DNA of 28,707 bases from Lentisphaerota bacterium. GTDB taxonomy: Bacteria > Verrucomicrobiota > Lentisphaeria > Oligosphaerales > PUNB01. The position numbers and the translations under genes are program-made. Under the pieces are notes generated by a model that worked only from the letters and a program-made list of their open reading frames with translations, made no database searches and was not told where the DNA came from. This document shows positions 316 through 28,707 of this stretch, in pieces. The stretch is taken from assembly GCA_003552565.1 (NCBI GenBank), contig PUNB01000262.1:1-28707 (forward strand), in the 5' to 3' direction. Each line of letters opens with the position of its first letter. Position 1 is the stretch's first letter.

Positions 316-381
316 AGTTGATTAGCCTGAGACCGTCCGGAAAGGGGTATTGTGTGTTTTGAGTTCAACTTTCTCCCGAAT

Positions 382-420: not shown

Positions 421-655
421 AATTCGGCACACTACCCCTTTCCGGATGCCCTCTAGCTCGAGGTTATGCGAAAAGGGTTTTGTGGAGCTCACAAGCTCGA
501 AAGTGACTGTGCGTTCCACGGCCAATTGGATTAAGGCGAATGATTATGACGAAAGATTAGGGAAAAACGGGTGCGTCCCTTAATCTTTTGCCCTAATCTT
601 TCGCCTTAATCTCGTTTCCGACCCTTTTTCGCGGAGGATCTAGCTCCGCCGGGAA
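421..655 (+). repeat. structured ~230-bp interspersed repeat, copy L (motif A - hairpin core - motif A)
   Basis: About 135 bp of core is roughly 90% identical to the reverse complement of 2640-2790. The core itself is an imperfect ~90-nt hairpin ('GATTAAGGCGAA..GATTAGGG' / 'CCCTTAATC..TTCGCCTTAATC'). It is flanked by motif A at 435-458 and 622-645. Confidence 0.8.
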
Positions 656-2604: not shown

Positions 2605-2820
2605 TCGGCATATTTAGCTCGACCCGTCCGTAAAGGGTTCGGAAACGAGATTAAGGCGAAAGATTAGGGCAAAAGATTAAGGGGCGCACCCGTTTTTCCC
2701 TAAGCTTTCGTCATAATCTTTCGCTTTAATCTAATTGGTCGTAAAACGCACAGCCACTTTCGAGCTTGTGGCGTCCAGTTCAAAATCTTCAACGAACCCT
2801 TTCCGGACGGTCTAGCTCAG
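2605..2820 (-). repeat. structured ~230-bp interspersed repeat, copy R (inverted relative to 421-655)
   Basis: The reverse complement of 2640-2790 aligns to 476-612. Motif A occurs at 2616-2637 (minus orientation) and 2797-2817 (plus orientation, overlapping the TGA stop of the 2817-3896 gene). Confidence 0.8.
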
Positions 2821-3896: not shown

Positions 3897-4082
3897 GGGC
3901 GTTTTTCTAGAGGTTATGCGGAAAGGTTGATGTTCCGATTTGTGTTGGTTTAACCATTGTCTAGAACCTTGTCTCGCACCTTGTCGGGAACAAAAAACTG
4001 AATCGAAAAAAGTGCGCGACAAAGTGTTGTAACACCCGATTCTCTCTCGGGGTGCCCGGCGCGTCGCGCCACGAACCGGCGC

Positions 4083-4616
4083 TTATGTGAGGCTTCGCGT
4101 TGTTGGGCACGTTAAACTGCCGGAGTTCCAGCCGCTGGAGACTTGCTCGGCGGAAGGCTGTGTGTCGTTATCACGCCGCGGCTCCGGCGGTTCCAGCTTC
4201 ATTATTCCCGAGGCGGAAAAAAGAATCATACCGATAATAATCAGGGACAAGACGGCGTATCCCCACACGCCATTGCGAGCGAAGGCGTAGATAGTGGGTA
4301 TTAGTCCCCAGATGACAACCGTGGTTCCCAAAGTCAAACCGAAAATTATCAAGCCGTCCCCGGTAAAGAGTTCATTCCACCAAAGGGAATGTATAGAGGG
4401 GATAGAGCCATGCAGGATTTTCCAAATTTCCGGACCTGAGACTCCCTCGAAGATCATGGCGAAAGTGAAGTAGGGATTCAAGGCTGTATCCTCAGGACGG
4501 AGGACGGATATAATGATTCCGATCAAACAGATAACGCAAGTGGATAAGGTTATCCAATATACCACTTGTCCATAAATTCTGTTGTAAAGAGGCGCCACTG
4601 GTCTGTCTTCAGTCAT
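4083..4616 (-). CDS. DUF1634-family small membrane protein, partner of TauE/SafE
   Basis: 177 aa with 4 hydrophobic helices. It overlaps the upstream TauE/SafE gene by 8 nt, a known conserved pairing. The C-terminal about 20 codons run into a repeat/hairpin, so the true stop is uncertain. Confidence 0.55.
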   Translation of the reverse strand: MTEDRPVAPLYNRIYGQVVYWITLSTCVICLIGIIISVLRPEDTALNPYFTFAMIFEGVSGPEIWKILHGSIPSIHSLWWNELFTGDGLIIFGLTLGTTVVIWGLIPTIYAFARNGVWGYAVLSLIIIGMILFSASGIMKLEPPEPRRDNDTQPSAEQVSSGWNSGSLTCPTTRSLT

Positions 4617-7852: not shown

Positions 7853-7895
7853 TTTTCGTTTTCTCCTTAGTTAGACCTCGTTCGGAAAGTGTTTT

Positions 7896-8063
7896 ATGCC
7901 CCCGCCGGGCTTGTCCCGGCGGAGCAGTAGATTGGTTTTCAGAAATTTGCAGACACCCCCCTCATTTCCGCGGCATGACGGCGAGCCGACATGCCGCGGA
8001 AAAAAAAGCTTGAACATTCTTTTATTTGCAATCTTTCGCTCCGCCGGGACAAGCCCGGCGGGG
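7896..8063. repeat. triad of GC-rich hairpins in the ribH / PLD-gene divergent intergenic region
   Basis: 'CCGCCGGGCTTGTCCCGGCGG' at 7902-7922 and its inverted partner 'CCGCCGGGACAAGCCCGGCGG' at 8041-8061 flank a central perfect hairpin 'CCGCGGCATG-N12-CATGCCGCGG' (7969-8000) followed by A8. Confidence 0.6.
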
Positions 8064-8176
8064 GCGTATGAACTTTAAGCCTCCGGAGATACCTTTTCGC
8101 ATACCCTCTAGCTATGATTACCCTAGTGCCAGAATTGTGGCGGTTAATATAGCGCGGGAATTAACTTTTTAAACTA

Positions 8177-10984: not shown

Positions 10985-11319
10985 GTTTCGAGTCGGTATG
11001 GAATACAGGTTTCGGGTTTCAGAAAGGCTGTTTTGTACTTTCCTAGTCTCGCACCTTGTCTCGCACTTAGTCTGAAAAATGAGGAATCGACAGAAAACCA
11101 GACAAGGTGCGAGACAAAGTTTTATTTTTTTGTGCGTGTAGAGACTGCAAACACCTTTTCGCAGAGGGTCTAGCTATTAATAAGGTGTCAACTTTTAGTC
11201 AGGACTTGACACACCTGGACACTGAAACCTGAAACCACGAAGCCTCACATAAGTGAGTTTTATAATGAGATATTCGGCCGGCATTCGGACTTGGGAAACT
11301 AAAAAAAAGAAGTTATTTT

Positions 11320-12153: not shown

Positions 12154-12471
12154 ACACCTGACCGGGGCAGACGTGATTCGGCCGGGGCGTAATGTGTCAG
12201 TCATAGGAGCACGAATTTCCCACCTTTCACTGAAGCATTACTCCGAAACTGTCCATGCGCTTGCAATTACACGGATGCCAATTACTATTTCTGTTCCGGG
12301 GTATCTGGCGCCTTGCGCCGGGGGCGGGGCTTATCTGAAGCACAGTTTTGAATATTGAATGGTGAATATTGAACTTGGAATTTTTACCTGAAACCTGACA
12401 CCAGAAACCAAGCTGTTACCCATTCGTTTTGAGCAAGAGTCGCGTTTCATTCCAAACCAGCGGTGTAAAAA

Positions 12472-12678
12472 ATGATCAGCGAGAAGTTGTTATCTATCCT
12501 CGGGTGTCCGGCTTGTGAGCAGCGCCCCGCTCTTACACCGGTAAAAAAAGACGAGGGAGAATATCTGGCCTGCGAACAGTGCGGCCTGCTTTACCCGATT
12601 CGGGATGACATTCCGATTATGCTGGTTGATCAGGCGCTCCGTCCTTCCAAGGCGGCGGAGAGTTCCAAGCCTGAATAA
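12472..12678 (+). CDS. Trm112-like (DUF343/YcaR) small zinc-finger protein
   Basis: 'LLSILGCPACEQ...LACEQCGLLYPIRDDIPIMLVDQA' is the canonical Trm112p/YcaR motif. Confidence 0.75.
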   Translation: MISEKLLSILGCPACEQRPALTPVKKDEGEYLACEQCGLLYPIRDDIPIMLVDQALRPSKAAESSKPE

Positions 12679-12917
12679 TTCACGAGCCAAGATTACCGTC
12701 TGGCCACTTGCAGACTAAATAGAAAAAAAATAACATAACATGACAAAAATAAAACCACTGCGCGGACGGATTGTTCCGTCCGAATAAAATTCAAACCTTG
12801 TCCAGAACCTGAATCTATTTGGACTTTGGTTCAGGAGAAGGTTAGTTCCGTCATCCTTTGGAACGACTGTGTAATTGTTTCTAAACCGAAAACCCAAAAA
12901 CGCCAAGGAGCATAAAT

Positions 12918-13274
12918 ATGAGCACTGGTTATCATGAAGCAGGTTTAAGTCAGAAAACTCAGAATATCCATCGGGCCATCGCCAGTTTGCAGGAAGAACT
13001 GGAAGCGGTGGACTGGTATAATCAGCGCGCTGATGTGACTGAGGACGCGGAATTGAAAGCGGTTCTTGAACACAACCGCAATGAAGAGATTGAGCACGCC
13101 GGTATGCTGCTTGAATATCTCCGTCGCAATATGAGCGAGTTTGACGAGCAATTGTCGACCTACCTGTTTTCCACTCTGCCGATCACCCAGATCGAAGAGG
13201 CTGAAGAGGGCGGGGAAAATGACGCTCCCGGCGACGTCTCCAGCTCTGGCTTGGGCATTGGGAAAATGGATTAG
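12918..13274 (+). CDS. encapsulated ferritin-like protein (EncFtn/Flp) cargo with C-terminal encapsulin targeting peptide
   Basis: 'EELEAVDWYNQRADVTEDAELKAVLEHNRNEEIEHAGMLLEYLRR' is the EncFtn di-iron motif region. The Gly-rich linker ends in 'SSGLGIGKMD', resembling the family-1 cargo-loading peptide (GSLGIGxL). Confidence 0.8.
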   Translation: MSTGYHEAGLSQKTQNIHRAIASLQEELEAVDWYNQRADVTEDAELKAVLEHNRNEEIEHAGMLLEYLRRNMSEFDEQLSTYLFSTLPITQIEEAEEGGENDAPGDVSSSGLGIGKMD

Positions 13275-13346
13275 CTCAGTTCTTGATGCCTTGGTAGTGA
13301 ACTGATTTATTGCTTTGTATTATCAAAAAACATAAGGAAATGAAAG

Positions 13347-14153
13347 ATGGATATTTTAAAAAGATCACTGGCTCCAATCACTGACAGCGCCTGGAATGAG
13401 ATTGATCAGGAAGCGGCGCGCGTTTTGAGAGGCAATCTGGCTTTTCGCGGCCTGGTGGACTTCGTCGGACCCGAGGGCTGGGAGAAGGCGGCGGTCAATC
13501 TGGGCACCATGAAAGAAGGCGGCAAGCAGCTGGTGAAAGGAGTTAACTGGGGATTACGTCAGGTTCAGCCTTTGACCGAAATCAGAGTGCCCTTTTCTCT
13601 TGATATATGGGAGTTGGACAACTTGGAACGCGGCGCCCAGGCACCCGATCTGGACGCGGTCACGCAGGCGGCTCAACAAGGAGCGGTCTTTGAGGAAACG
13701 GCTGTTCTCAACGGTTTTTCCGAGGCTCAGATCACCGGCATCGGTCAGGCGGCCGGCAAACCGATCGGCATGTCCAAGAACCCAGCCGATTGCCTCGCCG
13801 CTTTTGAAGAAGGCATCGTGGCCTTGCAGAAGCAGGGAATCAACGGTCCATACCAGCTGGTTCTGGGAACGGAAGCCTATCAAATGATAATGGCCGGTGA
13901 TGATAAAGGTTATCCTCTGCACAAGCGCGTACAGGAATTGACCGGAACCGACATCAAATGGAGTCCGGCAGTGATGCAGGCGGGGATTATTTTAAGCTGT
14001 CGCGGCGGTGATTATGTCTTCACCTGCGGCCAGGATTTTTCCATCGGCTATCATTCACATTCAACCAAGGCGGTTAATCTGTTTTTAACCGAGTCTTTTA
14101 CTTTCCAGGTTCTGGAACCCGCGGCGGCGGTCAGTATATCCTGGAAAAAGTGA
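13347..14153 (+). CDS. family-1 encapsulin nanocompartment shell protein (linocin M18-like, HK97 fold)
   Basis: Collinear similarity to the T. maritima encapsulin: 'MDILKRSLAPITDSAWNEID', 'WGLRQVQPLTEIRVPFSLDIWELDNLERG', 'GPYQLVLGTEAYQ', 'GYPLHKRVQELTG', 'GQDFSIGYHSHSTKAVNLFLTESFTFQVLEP'. Confidence 0.9.
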   Translation: MDILKRSLAPITDSAWNEIDQEAARVLRGNLAFRGLVDFVGPEGWEKAAVNLGTMKEGGKQLVKGVNWGLRQVQPLTEIRVPFSLDIWELDNLERGAQAPDLDAVTQAAQQGAVFEETAVLNGFSEAQITGIGQAAGKPIGMSKNPADCLAAFEEGIVALQKQGINGPYQLVLGTEAYQMIMAGDDKGYPLHKRVQELTGTDIKWSPAVMQAGIILSCRGGDYVFTCGQDFSIGYHSHSTKAVNLFLTESFTFQVLEPAAAVSISWKK

Positions 14154-14215
14154 CGGTTTGGCCTGAAATAAATTGCGAGTCAAATTTGCCGCATGGCCGA
14201 ATTTGCATGCATTAA

Positions 14216-14662
14216 TCAGGCGTTTTTCTCGAGGATAATGGTGACTGGGCCGTCATTGGTCAAACTTACCCGCATATCGGCGGCGAAAATGCCAGTGGCG
14301 ACCTTCAGGCCGGTTGTGTCCTGGATGACCTGACTGAAGAGTTGATAAAGCGGGTCGGAAATTTCCGGCGGCGCCGCTTCCACAAAGCTGGGGCGGCGCC
14401 CTTTGGCACAGTCACCGTAAAGAGTGAACTGTGATACAACCATGATTTCGCCGCCGATATCCTGGACTGAACGATTCATGCGCTGCTGCTGATCCCGGAA
14501 GATCCTTAAATTGGCGCATTTGTCGGCGAGCCAGCGTGCTTCCTTTTCCGTGTCGTCATGGTGAACTCCCAGCAGAATAACCAGCCCCGGGCCGATTTCG
14601 CCGACAGTTTCATTGTCCACCTCCACTCGGGCATCCGTAACTCTCTGCACTACCGCTTTCAT
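14216..14662 (-). CDS. dtd: D-aminoacyl-tRNA deacylase
   Basis: 'MKAVVQRVTDARVEV...GPGLVILLGVHHDDTEKEARWLADKCANLRIFRD...SQFTLYGDCAKGRRPSF'. Confidence 0.9.
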   Translation of the reverse strand: MKAVVQRVTDARVEVDNETVGEIGPGLVILLGVHHDDTEKEARWLADKCANLRIFRDQQQRMNRSVQDIGGEIMVVSQFTLYGDCAKGRRPSFVEAAPPEISDPLYQLFSQVIQDTTGLKVATGIFAADMRVSLTNDGPVTIILEKNA

Positions 14663-14725
14663 TTTGTCTCTTTTCTTTTCGAGTGATTATATTCTGCGTC
14701 GGTTGTCAAGATTGTGTGAGACTTG

Positions 14726-14976
14726 GAATATATATCCTTGTCTCGAACCTTGTCTCGAACCTTGTCCCGAACCTTGTCCCTAATCCGCCTCAGGCGGATT
14801 AGGGACAAGGTTTTTTATGCCGCACCAGTCTCTCGCTCGGAGTATCAGGCTCCTCGAGCCAGCGGTCAGGCTTATGTGAAACTCAGCCTTGTCTACCTCA
14901 GGCGGATCTGGTTTTCTTTCGATTCCTCATTTTTCGGACTAAGTGCGAGACAAGGTGCGAGACAAGGTGAGCACAA
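14726..14976. repeat. composite structured element: 4x tandem 12-mer 'CCTTGTCTCGAA', a 12-bp-stem palindrome with T6, and inverted 12-mer copies at the far end
   Basis: 14736-14783 holds the tandem 12-mers. 14779-14815 is 'CCCTAATCCGCC-TCAG-GGCGGATTAGGG ACAAGGTTTTTT'. 14946-14970 is 'GTGCGAGACAAGGTGCGAGACAAGG', the inverse of the 12-mer. A 'GGCTTATGTGAAACTCAGCC' box lies at 14859-14878. Confidence 0.7.
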
Positions 14977-15007
14977 AATCAGGTCTCAACCCCTTTCCGG
15001 ACGGGCT

Positions 15008-15940
15008 CTATCTAAGGCTGTTTGCAGTGTTTTTCGAGGCGCGCGCCGCACCATGCCAGGTCCACACATTGCCGCTGAATTCTTTTTCAGCTTTTAACGC
15101 CGCGGCGGCTGCTTGTTCTTCAGAGTTGAACACGGCGAAAACCGTCGGGCCGCTGCCGGAAACATGGCTTGCCATGGAATCTTGATTCCGGAGGAAGTCA
15201 AAAAACATTTGTAATAGAGGAATTTTCTGCAAAAGCGGTTCGTTAAAACGAGTTCGAGTATTTCGGGCAATTTTTTCTAGATCCCCCTCCCACATTGCTT
15301 TTAATAAAGGTATGGAGGAGATTTCCATTAGGTCATCGAAACTTCCGCGGATTCGCTGATAAGCCCAGCCGGCGGAAACGGGGAGGCCGCCGGGGTTTAA
15401 CAATAGAATCGGAATAGAGCAGTTAAGTGTAACCGGATCCAGTTTATCGCCTATGCCGCGGGCTAAGGAGGGAAGGGGATTCAGGAAGAAGGGCGCGTCA
15501 GCTCCGAGTTGGCGGGCCATTTGATGGCGTCGGCTGTCACCAAGCGTGATTCCGGTTATCTCCTCCAGAGCATTCAGCACGGCGGCGCCGTCTGAACTGC
15601 CGCCGCCCAGGCCTGCGGCCACGGGTATTTTTTTATCGATGTGTATATGCCAGGCCGGGGGGATTTTTGCTTCTTCCGCAAAAGCAATTGCGGCCTGGTA
15701 AACCAAATTGGAGCTGTCAACTGGAACCTGCGGGTGGCTACAGGTGATTTCAGGCTCCCTGCCGTGGATAGGGGTTACAGTTATAGTATCACATAGATCC
15801 GGCAGCGGCAGAAAAACAGACTCCAACTCATGCATCCCGTCGGCTCTTTTGCCGCGAATGGCCAGGAACAGATTTATCTTCGCCGGTGTCTTAACGATTA
15901 CACTACGGATGGCAGCTGCTGAATGTTCTGTTTTTAACAT
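15008..15940 (-). CDS. ispE: 4-diphosphocytidyl-2-C-methyl-D-erythritol kinase
   Basis: 'PAKINLFLAIRGKRADGMHELESVF' and 'KIPVAAGLGGGSSDGAAVL' are GHMP-kinase/IspE motifs. The stop overlaps motif A (14990-15014). Confidence 0.85.
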   Translation of the reverse strand: MLKTEHSAAAIRSVIVKTPAKINLFLAIRGKRADGMHELESVFLPLPDLCDTITVTPIHGREPEITCSHPQVPVDSSNLVYQAAIAFAEEAKIPPAWHIHIDKKIPVAAGLGGGSSDGAAVLNALEEITGITLGDSRRHQMARQLGADAPFFLNPLPSLARGIGDKLDPVTLNCSIPILLLNPGGLPVSAGWAYQRIRGSFDDLMEISSIPLLKAMWEGDLEKIARNTRTRFNEPLLQKIPLLQMFFDFLRNQDSMASHVSGSGPTVFAVFNSEEQAAAAALKAEKEFSGNVWTWHGAARASKNTANSLR

Positions 15941-16076
15941 GTGGAGTTTAACAAGTCGTGTTGAATGAACAAAGGTTAAAGATATATTAGAGAATGATTG
16001 CTCTGTCGTTTTTTGTCTGTTTCCGGTGGTAATCTAATTCAAATGATAACAAATAAAAATTGACGAGGTGAATACA

Positions 16077-16724
16077 ATGAATAAATTGCGTTTTAGTGGT
16101 TTGATGATGATTTGTGCGGCCGCTTTGATTTTGAACGGCTGCGCTACAGGCGAAAGTGTGGTTTCTCCTGGATTCAGGGAAGCCAGTCCCGACCGAGTCG
16201 CGGTGGTTGATATCACCGGCGATATCAGAGGAGACGCGGTTAAGAACCAGGTGGAAGATTATCTTTCCATGGAGATGATGAAGAAAGGCTATCGGGTGGT
16301 TGAGCGCAGTCGCGTCCAGCAAGTTATGGAAGAACAGGATTTTCAGGTTTCCGACCGCACTTCCGCTCGGGAGGCGGCCAGGATCGGGGAAATCATGAAT
16401 ATTCCCGCCGTTATGATGCTTGATGTTAAAATTGACGGTGAAAAGCTCAGCCTCACCGGGCGGATGGTGGATTCGCAAACCGGAGAAGTTTTATGGATCG
16501 GCAGCGGCCGCGGCGGCACCGGTCGAACAATGGCCACTTTGGGCGGAGCCGTTACCGGCGGCTTGCTTGGAACTCAGGTTGGCGCTGGACGCGGTCGAGA
16601 CATTGCCACCGTTACCGGCGGCGTTTTGGGAGGAGCCGCCGGCTATACTCTGGCACCGCAGGCACAGCGGATGGTGCAGAGGGCGATTGGACAAATGGTC
16701 GATGAATTGCCGGACGCGCGTTGA
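16077..16724 (+). CDS. lipoprotein with C-terminal glycine-zipper domain (LpoB/CsgG-like N-domain?)
   Basis: Signal peptide + lipobox 'LILNGC'. N-domain 'VAVVDITGDIRGDAV..VEDYLSMEMMKKGYRVVERSRV'. C-terminal 'GAVTGGLLGTQVGAGRG..VTGGVLGGAAGY' glycine zipper. GAGGTG RBS lies 6 nt before the ATG at 16077 (a GTG at 16068 is also possible). Confidence 0.6.
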   Translation: MNKLRFSGLMMICAAALILNGCATGESVVSPGFREASPDRVAVVDITGDIRGDAVKNQVEDYLSMEMMKKGYRVVERSRVQQVMEEQDFQVSDRTSAREAARIGEIMNIPAVMMLDVKIDGEKLSLTGRMVDSQTGEVLWIGSGRGGTGRTMATLGGAVTGGLLGTQVGAGRGRDIATVTGGVLGGAAGYTLAPQAQRMVQRAIGQMVDELPDAR

Positions 16725-16874
16725 CGCTTGTGTGAGACTTTGTGGTTTCAGGTTTCAGTGTTCAGATGTCAGACAACAGAAACCATGCGAGACAAACTGT
16801 AGTAACGCATCCCATGGGACGCTTGTGAGTTTTTTTTAATTAATTTGCCTGTAACATGAAAGGATAAATGCTTA

Positions 16875-17519: not shown

Positions 17520-17532
17520 GAAAATATTGAGT

Positions 17533-17600
17533 TACCGCGCGGACGTATTATTACGTCCGGTATATTGGGCTACCGCGCGGACGTATTATTACGTCCGGTA
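17533..17600. repeat. two tandem 30-bp palindromic units 'TACCGCGCGGACGTATTATTACGTCCGGTA' separated by 8 bp
   Basis: Unit 1 at 17533-17562 and unit 2 at 17571-17600 are identical. Each contains the perfect palindrome CGGACGTA-ATTAT-TACGTCCG. They lie between the purO stop and the hisD start. Confidence 0.85.
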
Positions 17601-19838: not shown

Positions 19839-19904
19839 TGGAAGATTAAGGCTTTTTCTCAAAACGAATGAGTTGCTAATAGTTTTTCTTAGATTTTATG
19901 GGCA

Positions 19905-20190
19905 CCAGCTTGGTTTTAGATCTCAGGTTTCAGGTGTCAGGACTTGACAAGGCGGATCGTGCAGTGACCGATAAAGATAGTGGTTTAAGCGTAACCAAGT
20001 AAGTGTGAGACGAAGGGTGGGATGAAGAGGAAGCCGAAGTGTTTAGAAGAGAGGCCTGAAGCCCATGACACTTAACCCCCCACTTAATCGTACACTTGAG
20101 CCCACTCTTAGTTGGTTACGCTTAAGCAACCTGCTTGGGTACGAAATTCTGAAACCTGAAACCCGAAACCTGAACTCTGTCACGAACAAT
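19905..20190. repeat. structured intergenic element bounded by inverted motif-C heptamer runs, with an internal imperfect 25-bp inverted repeat
   Basis: Motif C '...CAGCTTGGTTTTAGATCTCAGGTTTCAGGTGTCAGGACTTGACAAGG' at 19905-19951. Its inverted counterpart 'CTGAAACCTGAAACCCGAAACCTGAAC' at 20148-20174. IR arms 19985-20009 vs 20104-20130 (TTAAGCGTAACCAA...). Confidence 0.65.
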
Positions 20191-22517: not shown

Positions 22518-22870
22518 GGTTTCGTATTGTGGCTATAAAAACCTGGTGTCTCATACAAGCCCAGCCGCCGGCGCAAAGCGCCTGATACCCCGGATGGAAA
22601 CAGCGGCTAACGAAGAACCGTGACCCTATCCGTGTGTATCCGTGTTAATCCGTGGTGAAAAAAGGCAGAAAATAAAACCACGGATGGACACAGATTAACA
22701 CTGATATAAAATGGTTCGTTTCTAGTGGGAAAAACGGAGAACAAAACGACCGTGTTTCACATAAGCCTGATCGCCGGCGCGATGCACGCCGAATACCCTG
22801 AGGGTGAGACTGTTGCGGCATAAAAAACCTTGTCTCGAACCTTGTCCAGTTTTTTTTGACTTTTTGTGCC

Positions 22871-27554: not shown

Positions 27555-27779
27555 AGTCCTAGCTCACTCTAAGTTTTTTATGGCTTTTTCTTAAAACAAA
27601 TGTTTATTAATAAAAGATTCTTTTCTGAAATTTCATCGGTAACAGCTTGGTTTCAGGTTTCTGGTGTCAGGGTATTAGTTAAATCCCAAATCTAAAATCA
27701 CAAATCTCATTGATGGAATATGGTTCGGGACAAAGTTGAACCCAGAGACACGCGAAACACCTTTTCGGATACCCTCAGG

Positions 27780-28707
27780 CTAGTATTCCAAGTCAATCGG
27801 CTCTTCGAGTCTTGCCCGGATAGTGAACGTTCTCAGATTAAACACCTGATCCGACACTTCGTATTCATCAAAATCGACCCGATCCTCAACGAAAACAGGC
27901 AATCTTCTCAACCTTGACAAAAGTACCTGTTCCGGACCGCGGCCGTTATCCGGAACCTCTTCAGGCGCCTCAATATCCTCGAGCTCATCGGCCGCCTCTT
28001 CGAGTTCTTCCCGCGCTAACTCTTCAAGCTCTTCATCCCCAACGTCTTGTCCGTCAATTCTAACTCCCGGCGGAAGTGAAAGACTGTGGCCGCGAACTGC
28101 TATGCCGGTGATTCTGCCTCTCGGGCCGCTTTCTTCCAGTTCAATCTCATCAGGATCTCTTTCTTCATCCTCGCGCCGCGGTTCATCGTCACGATCACGC
28201 CTCCTGCTGAAAGGACTGGCGGGAGCGTCGCGCTCGGGCCGGCGTTCCTCTTCTTCCTCTCTCAAATCCTCAAAAACCGGCCTGAATTCAGTGAACCACA
28301 ACCTTCCGGGTATTTCCGCTTCCACGGAATTAACCACCCGCACCCAATCTTCGCGTCTTCTCAGCAGGCGGTTCAATCGCTGGTACTGATCCTCGACATT
28401 GCTGATCTCGCTCTCCACCCCGCTCAATTCGCTCTCTTTCTCTTCCAGCTCTTGGCGCTGTTCCCGGAATTGTTCCACCACCGGCTCATAAACCTGAGCC
28501 ATGTACATATTGCTGAACAAAGAGAAGGTCAACAGCAAAAGTACGCACAAAGCCGCCGCTCCCAGCCATGTCTTCTTCTGCTCAAAAGCCACTAGTCGAC
28601 GTATGCGCCGCGGCAGGAGATTAACCTCAACCGGACAGGCCCCTCGATAACGCAGCGCCAAACCAACCGCCTGACTGAACCCATGGGCCTCGTTTTCCAA
28701 TCTTTCA
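27780..28707 (-). CDS. PilN-like pilus assembly protein, possibly fused to an upstream PilM-like domain. The 5' end is outside the window.
   Basis: The ORF is open to the window end. 'VNLLPRRIRRLVAFEQKKTWLGAAALCVLLLLTF' is a PilN N-terminus (INLLP motif + TM), then a coiled coil. The preceding 'GFSQAVGLALRY' resembles a PilM C-terminus. Long acidic/Arg tail. Confidence 0.55.
   Translation of the reverse strand, partial: ERLENEAHGFSQAVGLALRYRGACPVEVNLLPRRIRRLVAFEQKKTWLGAAALCVLLLLTFSLFSNMYMAQVYEPVVEQFREQRQELEEKESELSGVESEISNVEDQYQRLNRLLRRREDWVRVVNSVEAEIPGRLWFTEFRPVFEDLREEEEERRPERDAPASPFSRRRDRDDEPRREDEERDPDEIELEESGPRGRITGIAVRGHSLSLPPGVRIDGQDVGDEELEELAREELEEAADELEDIEAPEEVPDNGRGPEQVLLSRLRRLPVFVEDRVDFDEYEVSDQVFNLRTFTIRARLEEPIDLEY

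Follow-up and report, generated by a model that had tools for sequence, protein, structure and literature searches.

Intergenic boxes in the window

The stretch of DNA analysed here (the window; 28,707 nt of contig PUNB01000262.1 from a Lentisphaerota bacterium) includes genes for an MFS transporter, a glycosyltransferase, PLD-like and TatD-like proteins and IspE, together with an encapsulin operon, and between its genes a degenerate box of about 24 bp, Motif A, recurs. Nine copies had been listed in the original prediction and all nine are present, in position and in strand; three more, each on the minus strand (322-347, 453-478 and 7867-7892), bring the number to 12. A PWM trained solely on copies from other genomes and applied at a threshold of 10 bits returns 10 ungapped matches in the window, against a mean of 0.07 and a maximum of one in 200 second-order Markov simulations, so that the box is indeed non-random as first proposed; two further copies (2614-2638, minus; 2796-2819, plus) have a spacer that is 1-2 nt shorter. 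The literal pattern CCTTTYCG-N4-7-CTCTAGCT fits just two of the nine sites first listed letter for letter, owing to the degeneracy of the box, and does not occur in 100 shuffles; TCTAGCT alone is marginally enriched (five occurrences, 1.7 expected). All 12 copies start outside the main ORFs, that is, within about 5.0 kb (17.6 %) of the window, which upholds their intergenic placement, and the density of matches is 3.1 per 10 kb. Folding of the box yields minimum free energies of 0 to -0.5 kcal/mol with positive z-scores, no better than those of shuffled sequence, and the dyad symmetry around TCCGGA that had been ascribed to it is seen in some copies only, relatives reading TTCGGA, and is not a feature of the element. 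Rfam models at their gathering thresholds detect tRNA-Val alone in the window and nothing at the boxes; a scan of viral contigs for the box gave 30 singletons, which is the level of chance.

Eight of the copies form four inverted pairs, with their CCTTT ends inward and their CTAGCT ends outward, that bound non-coding units of 125-235 bp; the other four are solo ends. The original prediction of a free-standing site does not survive this arrangement. The units, which are very probably MITEs, and the solo ends are as follows (TIR, terminal inverted repeat; bits, PWM score).

329-453: probable MITE E1, 125 bp; left TIR 329-345 (minus) and right TIR 437-453 (plus), 19.8 and 29.6 bits; flanks TAGCCT (323-328) and TAGCTC (454-459), agreeing at 4/6 positions; interior with a long hairpin and then a T-run (367-413)
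460-640: probable MITE E2, 181 bp; left TIR 460-476 (minus) and right TIR 623-640 (plus, one extra T); flanks TAGCTC at 454-459 and 641-646, a perfect non-palindromic 6-bp direct repeat
2621-2812: probable MITE E3, 192 bp; left TIR 2621-2636 (minus) and right TIR 2798-2812 (plus); flanks TAGCTC at 2615-2620 and 2813-2818, a perfect 6-bp direct repeat
7874-8108: probable MITE E4, 235 bp; left TIR 7874-7890 (minus, degenerate) and right TIR 8092-8108 (plus), 13.9 and 32.0 bits; flanks TAGTTA (7868-7873) and TAGCTA (8109-8114), agreeing at 5/6 positions; interior with 40-nt inverted repeats (7895-7934 / 8029-8068)
3904-3926: solo end, minus; TIR 3910-3926 and 6-mer 3904-3909; 18.3 bits
11154-11176: solo end, plus, the site named in the original prediction; TIR 11154-11170 and TAGCTA 11171-11176; 30.0 bits
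14992-15014: solo end, plus; TIR 14992-15008 and TATCTA 15009-15014; 28.0 bits
27760-27782: solo end, plus; TIR 27760-27776 and AGGCTA 27777-27782; 28.4 bits

E2 abuts E1 head-to-head, the 6-mer at 454-459 being common to both, and the right-hand repeat of E3 overlaps the TGA stop codon of the glycosyltransferase gene (2817-2819). E2 and E3 belong to one subfamily and run in opposite orientations; they are 90 % identical across 149 nt, which is the only sign of duplication within the window. Between these two units, E3 being inverted, are the gene for the MFS transporter (762-1955) and an unknown ORF of 164 aa (2071-2565), and since their four junction 6-mers are all TAGCTC, the segment 460-2812 looks like a composite-transposon-like cassette with a direct repeat of its own (454-2818).

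The solo end at 3904-3926 stops 10 nt before the ATG (3896) of the gene originally described as CgeB-like, which encodes a glycosyltransferase (Pfam Glyco_trans_1_2); its interior, which has 12-nt GACAAGGT-type repeats, continues rightwards to about 4030, with no recognizable partner TIR. The interior of the end at 11154-11176 extends leftwards to about 11005, where the partner is badly decayed, and that of the end at 14992-15014, also leftwards, consists of tandem 12-mers and a hairpin with a 20-bp stem (14726-14978); positions 11031-11102 are complementary to 14907-14978 (92 %). Repeats of the 12-nt GACAAGGT type in the inward flank are common to the four solo ends and E1. No recognizable partner end was found in the window for the four solo copies among the 12, and a tblastn search of the window with the transposase described below gave neither a gene nor a fragment. 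As the window has no transposase gene, its copies are presumably MITEs or decayed ends that are mobilized in trans.

Tandem 12-nt repeats, AACCTTGTCTCG and the inverted form CGAGACAAGGTG, are situated just inside the TIRs (14726-14784, 3945-3991, 11032-11078 and 22818-22852), and a similar 12-nt array of three copies, CGACAAAGCTCG, adjoins a TIR in an Akkermansia MAG (L042, 2140-2175); these subterminal repeats may be binding repeats for the transposase. The hairpins at 367-413 and 14770-14816 are 89 % identical, each with a 20-bp stem and then a T-run, and are terminator-like on the plus strand only.

The window contains several other repeats. A separate intergenic family, GGTTTCAGGTTTCAGG / CCTGAAACCTGAAACC, is found at 11211-11253, 12386-12436, 16727-16769, 19898-19945, 20144-20174 and 27622-27671, and resembles the CTGAACAC-type repeats that adjoin TIRs in PVC MAGs from soda lakes (L103, L104 and L110). 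A GC-rich GGCTTATGTGAGAC-type family occurs in several intergenic regions, in both orientations (12295-12343 / 22546-22594, 14838-14882, 22754-22782, 4081-4103 and 16726-16748). A 38-nt unit containing the palindrome CGGACGTATTATTACGTCCG is duplicated in tandem at 17524-17599 (95 % identical), with a third, diverged copy 4.8 kb away at 12747-12784, and the 412-nt intergenic region upstream of glmM has a 63-nt inverted repeat (19980-20042 / 20068-20130, 71 % complementary) with a 25-nt loop. The encapsulin operon at 12918-14153 comprises an EncFtn-like gene and a Linocin_M18 shell protein gene, the Pfam families being taken from the gene table of a short contig with the same proteins (L001), and is preceded by a small Trm112-like ORF (12472-12678).

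Anatomy of the box and its occurrence in other genomes

Positions 1-17 of the box are a 17-bp terminal inverted repeat, CCTTTTCGGAYRSSSTC, of the form CCTTTTCGGA-YRSSS-TC; positions 18-23 are a 6-bp target-site duplication with the consensus TAGCTA, and position 24 is a G that reflects a target preference (C on the other side), the implied target being approximately CTAGCTAG. The CTAGCT half to which the original prediction drew attention is conserved, but it combines the last two TIR bases (TC) with the five that open the duplicated target (TAGCT) and is mostly duplicated target DNA rather than part of the element.

The boundary between TIR and target is hidden in full-length copies of the parent element because positions 17-24 are mostly the palindrome CTAGCTAG; almost all of the full-length insertion sequence (IS) copies from soil have the palindromic TAGCTA, and there the duplication is inseparable from the TIR. 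Duplications of 4 bp (AGCT), 8 bp (CTAGCTAG), TA or 4 bp (CTAG) are thus indistinguishable in the IS copies, and it is MITE pairs with variant targets, from a set of 35 in other genomes, that settle the length at 6 bp. Within this set, 13 of the 19 deviations at position 18 recur as a direct repeat at position 23 of the opposite end and none recurs as an inverted repeat, position 17 is always C, and position 24 varies freely with no partner; examples are CGAGCTAG...CGAGCTAG, CCAGCTAG...CCAGCTAG and CCTGCTAA...CCTGCTAA. Beyond position 24 there is no direct repeat. Within the window the flanking 6-mers agree at all six positions for E2 and E3, at five for E4 and at four for E1. We read Motif A with confidence as a transposable-element end, made up of a TIR, a target-site duplication and a preferred flanking base. 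In the soil IS copies (L136-L215) the centre of the duplicated target, AGCT, is often AACT or AGTT, with 30 of 59 deviations being G>A or C>T at box positions 20-21, independently at the two ends; one cause, which is speculative, could be cytosine methylation at AGCT followed by deamination.

When 185,579 species-representative genomes were scanned with a more stringent version of the box, at least 101 stretches matched. About 80 of the 101 stretches listed derive from 24 MAGs labelled as Verrucomicrobia, Victivallales, Lentisphaeria, Kiritimatiellae, PVC group or Akkermansia, which places the family in no fewer than 24 MAGs with PVC labels; the stretches listed also include a few MAGs with other labels and the same paired architecture, and about a dozen isolated matches that resemble chance. 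The genome from which the window comes is not among the 101 stretches listed, as judged by BLAST of the window. In several of the stretches listed the boxes are paired, either inverted at a distance of 170-300 nt or head-to-head with their outer bases overlapping, and about 35 inverted-pair units from other genomes are arranged like E1-E4. In one MAG there are about four additional box matches per 10 kb, compared with no extra matches in chance-like and viral control loci.

When 110 copies from other genomes are compared, they cease to resemble one another beyond the outer edge, ...TCTAGCT(AG), while the sequence on the inward side is conserved within each genome only, a pattern that is, on sequence grounds, the signature of the terminus of a repeat element. 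The inner 10 nt of the box are highly conserved across distant genomes, and an interior of the E2/E3 type is about 75 % identical in a MAG of another species. Many box matches in the stretches listed lie within about 100 nt of a contig end, and short-read contigs of 0.6-2.4 kb that encode encapsulin, Dtd and IspE proteins identical to those of the window end inside repeats; both are signs of high copy number. The contigs concerned (L001 and L133-L135, matching 12367-14765 and 14985-16760 of the window; runs SRR490150 and ERZ27265998) stop in repeat-rich intergenic regions, and because their proteins are identical to those of the window, the source organism is present in the SRR490150 and ERZ27265998 samples, where the repeats fragment its assembly.

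The parent insertion sequence

On one contig from the genome scan (L083), two inverted boxes 1,990 nt apart bound a unit of about 2.0 kb with a DDE transposase between them, which scores 32 bits with Pfam DDE_Tnp_1 (cut-off 23) and matches NF033593 with an E value of 1e-59. At nine consecutive A (826-834) the gene divides into two overlapping ORFs, the soil copies having a single 541-aa ORF; the interruption could reflect programmed frameshifting, a sequencing error or an inactivating one. In four other MAGs (L084, L089, L096 and L128) a homologous transposase gene is followed, about 180-270 nt beyond its 3' end, by a box in right-end orientation, and in L123 a short fragment of such a gene is about 200 nt from a box. 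A metagenome scan, for which the query was an alignment of the box-associated transposases, returned 80 loci, of which about 60 are full-length elements of about 1.84-1.86 kb, each bounded by inverted boxes CCTTTTCGGAGAACCTCTAGCTAG. Full-length IS copies with the shared TIRs are those of L083 and of about 60 metagenomic contigs, that is, of genomes other than the window's own.

The 541-aa transposase of one soil copy (L139) aligns with positions 21-443 of the 444 in NF033593 ('ISNCY family transposase'; E 2e-77), at 260.6 bits against a curated cut-off of 325, and being below this cut-off it is best described as a relative rather than a certified member of NF033593, with the name of the IS group only approximate. 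The gathering score of 23 for DDE_Tnp_1 is exceeded (26.6 and 32 bits), and there are weaker matches of the L139 protein to the IS1182, IS5 and IS982 models. The nearest annotated proteins are 'ISNCY' transposases of the ISRm17 and ISRle10 families on rhizobial plasmids, with 26 % identity over 370 aa (E 1e-28) to an annotated ISRm17-family ISNCY transposase. On these alignments, the parent IS encodes an IS4/IS5-type DDE transposase of about 540 aa.

A named IS carrying this TIR was not found, one ISRm17-family gene that we examined had no evident terminal repeats of a similar kind, and literature searches on IS892, ISNCY and ISDol1 turned up no description of the element; the family is apparently unnamed, while its kind is thoroughly known. 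Elements of the ISDol1 group of ISNCY in ISfinder are 1.6-1.9 kb in length with 6-7 bp duplications, properties that would fit the 1.84-2.03 kb length and the 6-bp duplication here. IS1202 represents the other large ISNCY subgroup, with TnsB-like enzymes and TGT ends (PMC10132070; PMC8147514), and was ruled out as the meaning of 'ISNCY' on account of these TnsB-like transposases and TGT ends (PMC10132070).

The catalytic domain, DDE_Tnp_1, is shared with ISNCY elements (NF033593; ISRm17 and ISRle10 of rhizobia), over an alignment of nearly the whole model, although the score is 260 against the cut-off of 325 and the protein here is some 90 aa longer at its N-terminus. IS5 has the target YTAR (e.g. 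CTAG) with a 4-bp duplication, and IS630 the target CTAG with a TA duplication; the preference for a CTAG-containing palindromic target and the ends 5'-GA...TC-3' are thus common to these families and ours, but the duplication here is 6 bp rather than 4 or 2, and the best model is ISNCY rather than IS5 or IS1182. The non-coding units resemble well-known bacterial MITEs, such as the Correia elements of Neisseria and the IS630-derived elements of cyanobacteria, in being short (under ~600 bp) and non-coding with TIRs identical to those of a full-length IS, and in being flanked by target duplications, numerous, intergenic, often at gene ends and a cause of breaks in short-read assemblies. They differ from them in having a parent IS outside the IS630/Tc1 type and a 6-bp duplication (TAGCTA) in place of TA; the interiors are genome-specific mosaics of 12-13 nt tandem repeats and long hairpins, and the hosts are PVC bacteria.

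Target choice, alternative readings and significance

The stop-codon overlaps at 2817, 15008 and 27780 were correctly noted in the original prediction, and it is their differing registers that are informative. The ispE stop (15008-15010, minus) is formed by the last TIR base and the first two target bases, at box positions 17-19; the TAG stop of the minus-strand ORF 27780-28700 (27780-27782), which we read as pilN from the adjoining secretin gene although it has no Pfam match, lies inside the 6-mer at box positions 21-23; and the glycosyltransferase stop is at box positions 22-24. Such variation fits better with insertion at TAG-containing targets than with a fixed functional relation. Three copies lie on stop codons because TAG can be read on either strand of the target, TAGCTA; CTAG falls short by a factor of about five in the window (24 occurrences where base composition predicts 112, seven of the 24 being at box ends) while AGCT does not (114 against 112), and with CTAG so scarce and TAG in the target, stop codons are among the favoured landing sites. 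The contacts with gene ends would then reflect the TAG-containing target and not a function at gene ends. Since the terminal C, TAGCTA and G together rebuild CTAGCTAG, new copies often land against old ones and share a single 6-mer with them; head-to-head ends account for 13 of 155 in the genome loci and 21 of 138 in the IS loci, and in the window for E1 and E2.

It is highly likely, in our view, that the box is the TIR and duplicated target of MITEs derived from a DDE-transposase IS that is common in PVC-group bacteria. The data show how the copies are related and how they are built, that the target is duplicated, and that a transposase is linked to them; binding, cleavage and mobilization in trans may be added to this from what is known of DDE insertion sequences and MITEs. 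A transposase supplied by a full-length copy elsewhere in the genome would bind the conserved inner block CCTTTTCGGA and cleave after the terminal ...TC, and the element would integrate at a TAGCTA-like site by way of a 6-bp staggered cut; the copies in the window would be, or would once have been, mobilized in trans by such a full-length copy. The box is thus almost certainly a protein-binding site, as had been suggested, although its probable ligand is the transposase and the regulatory sense of that suggestion falls away.

The reading to which the original prediction inclined, that a host regulator binds the box as an independent site or that the box is an unusual promoter element controlling its neighbours, would account for the intergenic location, for the conservation of the inner 10 nt across distant genomes and for the copies that lie upstream of genes in the sense orientation (622-645, MFS; 8092-8113, PLD-like; 11154-11175, TatD-like; and 3907-3926, ten nt before the glycosyltransferase ATG). 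We think it very unlikely: four copies or more face the 3' ends of convergent genes, start codons are anywhere from 10 to 300 nt away, inverted pairs bound repeated units, about 60 independent contigs have the box on both sides of a transposase gene, and a target-site duplication comes after the box. Relative to gene starts, neither orientation nor spacing is consistent, as it would be for a promoter or operator; that the box is not a sigma-factor promoter had been recognized from the outset. Slightly less credible still is a palindrome of the REP/REPIN type spread by a single-copy RAYT, an IS200/IS605-like tyrosine transposase. The copies are indeed short, abundant, intergenic and often in inverted pairs, as in REPINs and BIMEs, and in being repeat-like they agree with the 'REP-like' label first applied to them; in the strict sense the label fails, for the box lacks self-complementarity (0 to -0.5 kcal/mol) and has no hairpin, paired copies are 90-450 nt apart core to core with unrelated interiors and no single tight hairpin, and the associated enzyme is a DDE rather than a Y1/RAYT transposase. 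A 6-bp target duplication is also present, and to our knowledge Y1-transposase elements (IS200/IS605) make none.

A variant of the MITE reading, in which some copies are now retained for the host as stop codons, terminator hairpins or transcript-end signals, we consider improbable, if less so than the two alternatives above. Three copies do overlap stops, that of ispE being in part the last base of the element, two related interiors have a hairpin with a 20-bp stem and then a T-run, and the E2/E3-type interior is about 75 % identical in the MAG of another species. However, the position of the stop within the box differs in all three cases, the T-run at 14770-14816 lies on the other strand from the genes on either side, and a terminator and promoter scan of the window showed no enrichment over shuffles, with 26 terminator-like sites against 20.9 +/- 4.6. 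Chance recurrence of a degenerate motif might be read into the two exact sites for the literal pattern and the five occurrences of TCTAGCT where 1.7 were expected, but the independent PWM gives 10 matches where 0.07 are expected, all 12 copies fall within 17.6 % of the sequence and the box recurs in at least 24 related MAGs, and we regard this explanation as negligible.

A candidate regulatory motif is thereby replaced by a mobile-element family with a 17-bp TIR, a 6-bp TAGCTA duplication and a DDE transposase, which is ordinary mobile DNA, of low interest for general biology and of modest interest to specialists in mobile elements and MAG annotation. More tentatively, and with more doubt than conviction, the parent element may represent an IS group not yet catalogued, with a strict palindromic target C|TAGCTA|G, rebuilding of the target with head-to-head pile-up, and MITEs that prefer TAG stops across Kiritimatiellia, Lentisphaeria and Verrucomicrobia; if so, about 3-4 ends per 10 kb would make it a major intergenic component that could reshape the ends of genes and transcripts. 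The family is frequent in poorly studied bacteria of the PVC group, it explains breaks of short-read assemblies in their intergenic regions, and it illustrates how a TAG-containing target steers insertions to stop codons. With the TIR consensus, repeats in such MAGs can be masked, full-length copies found and insertion polymorphisms detected at the strain level.
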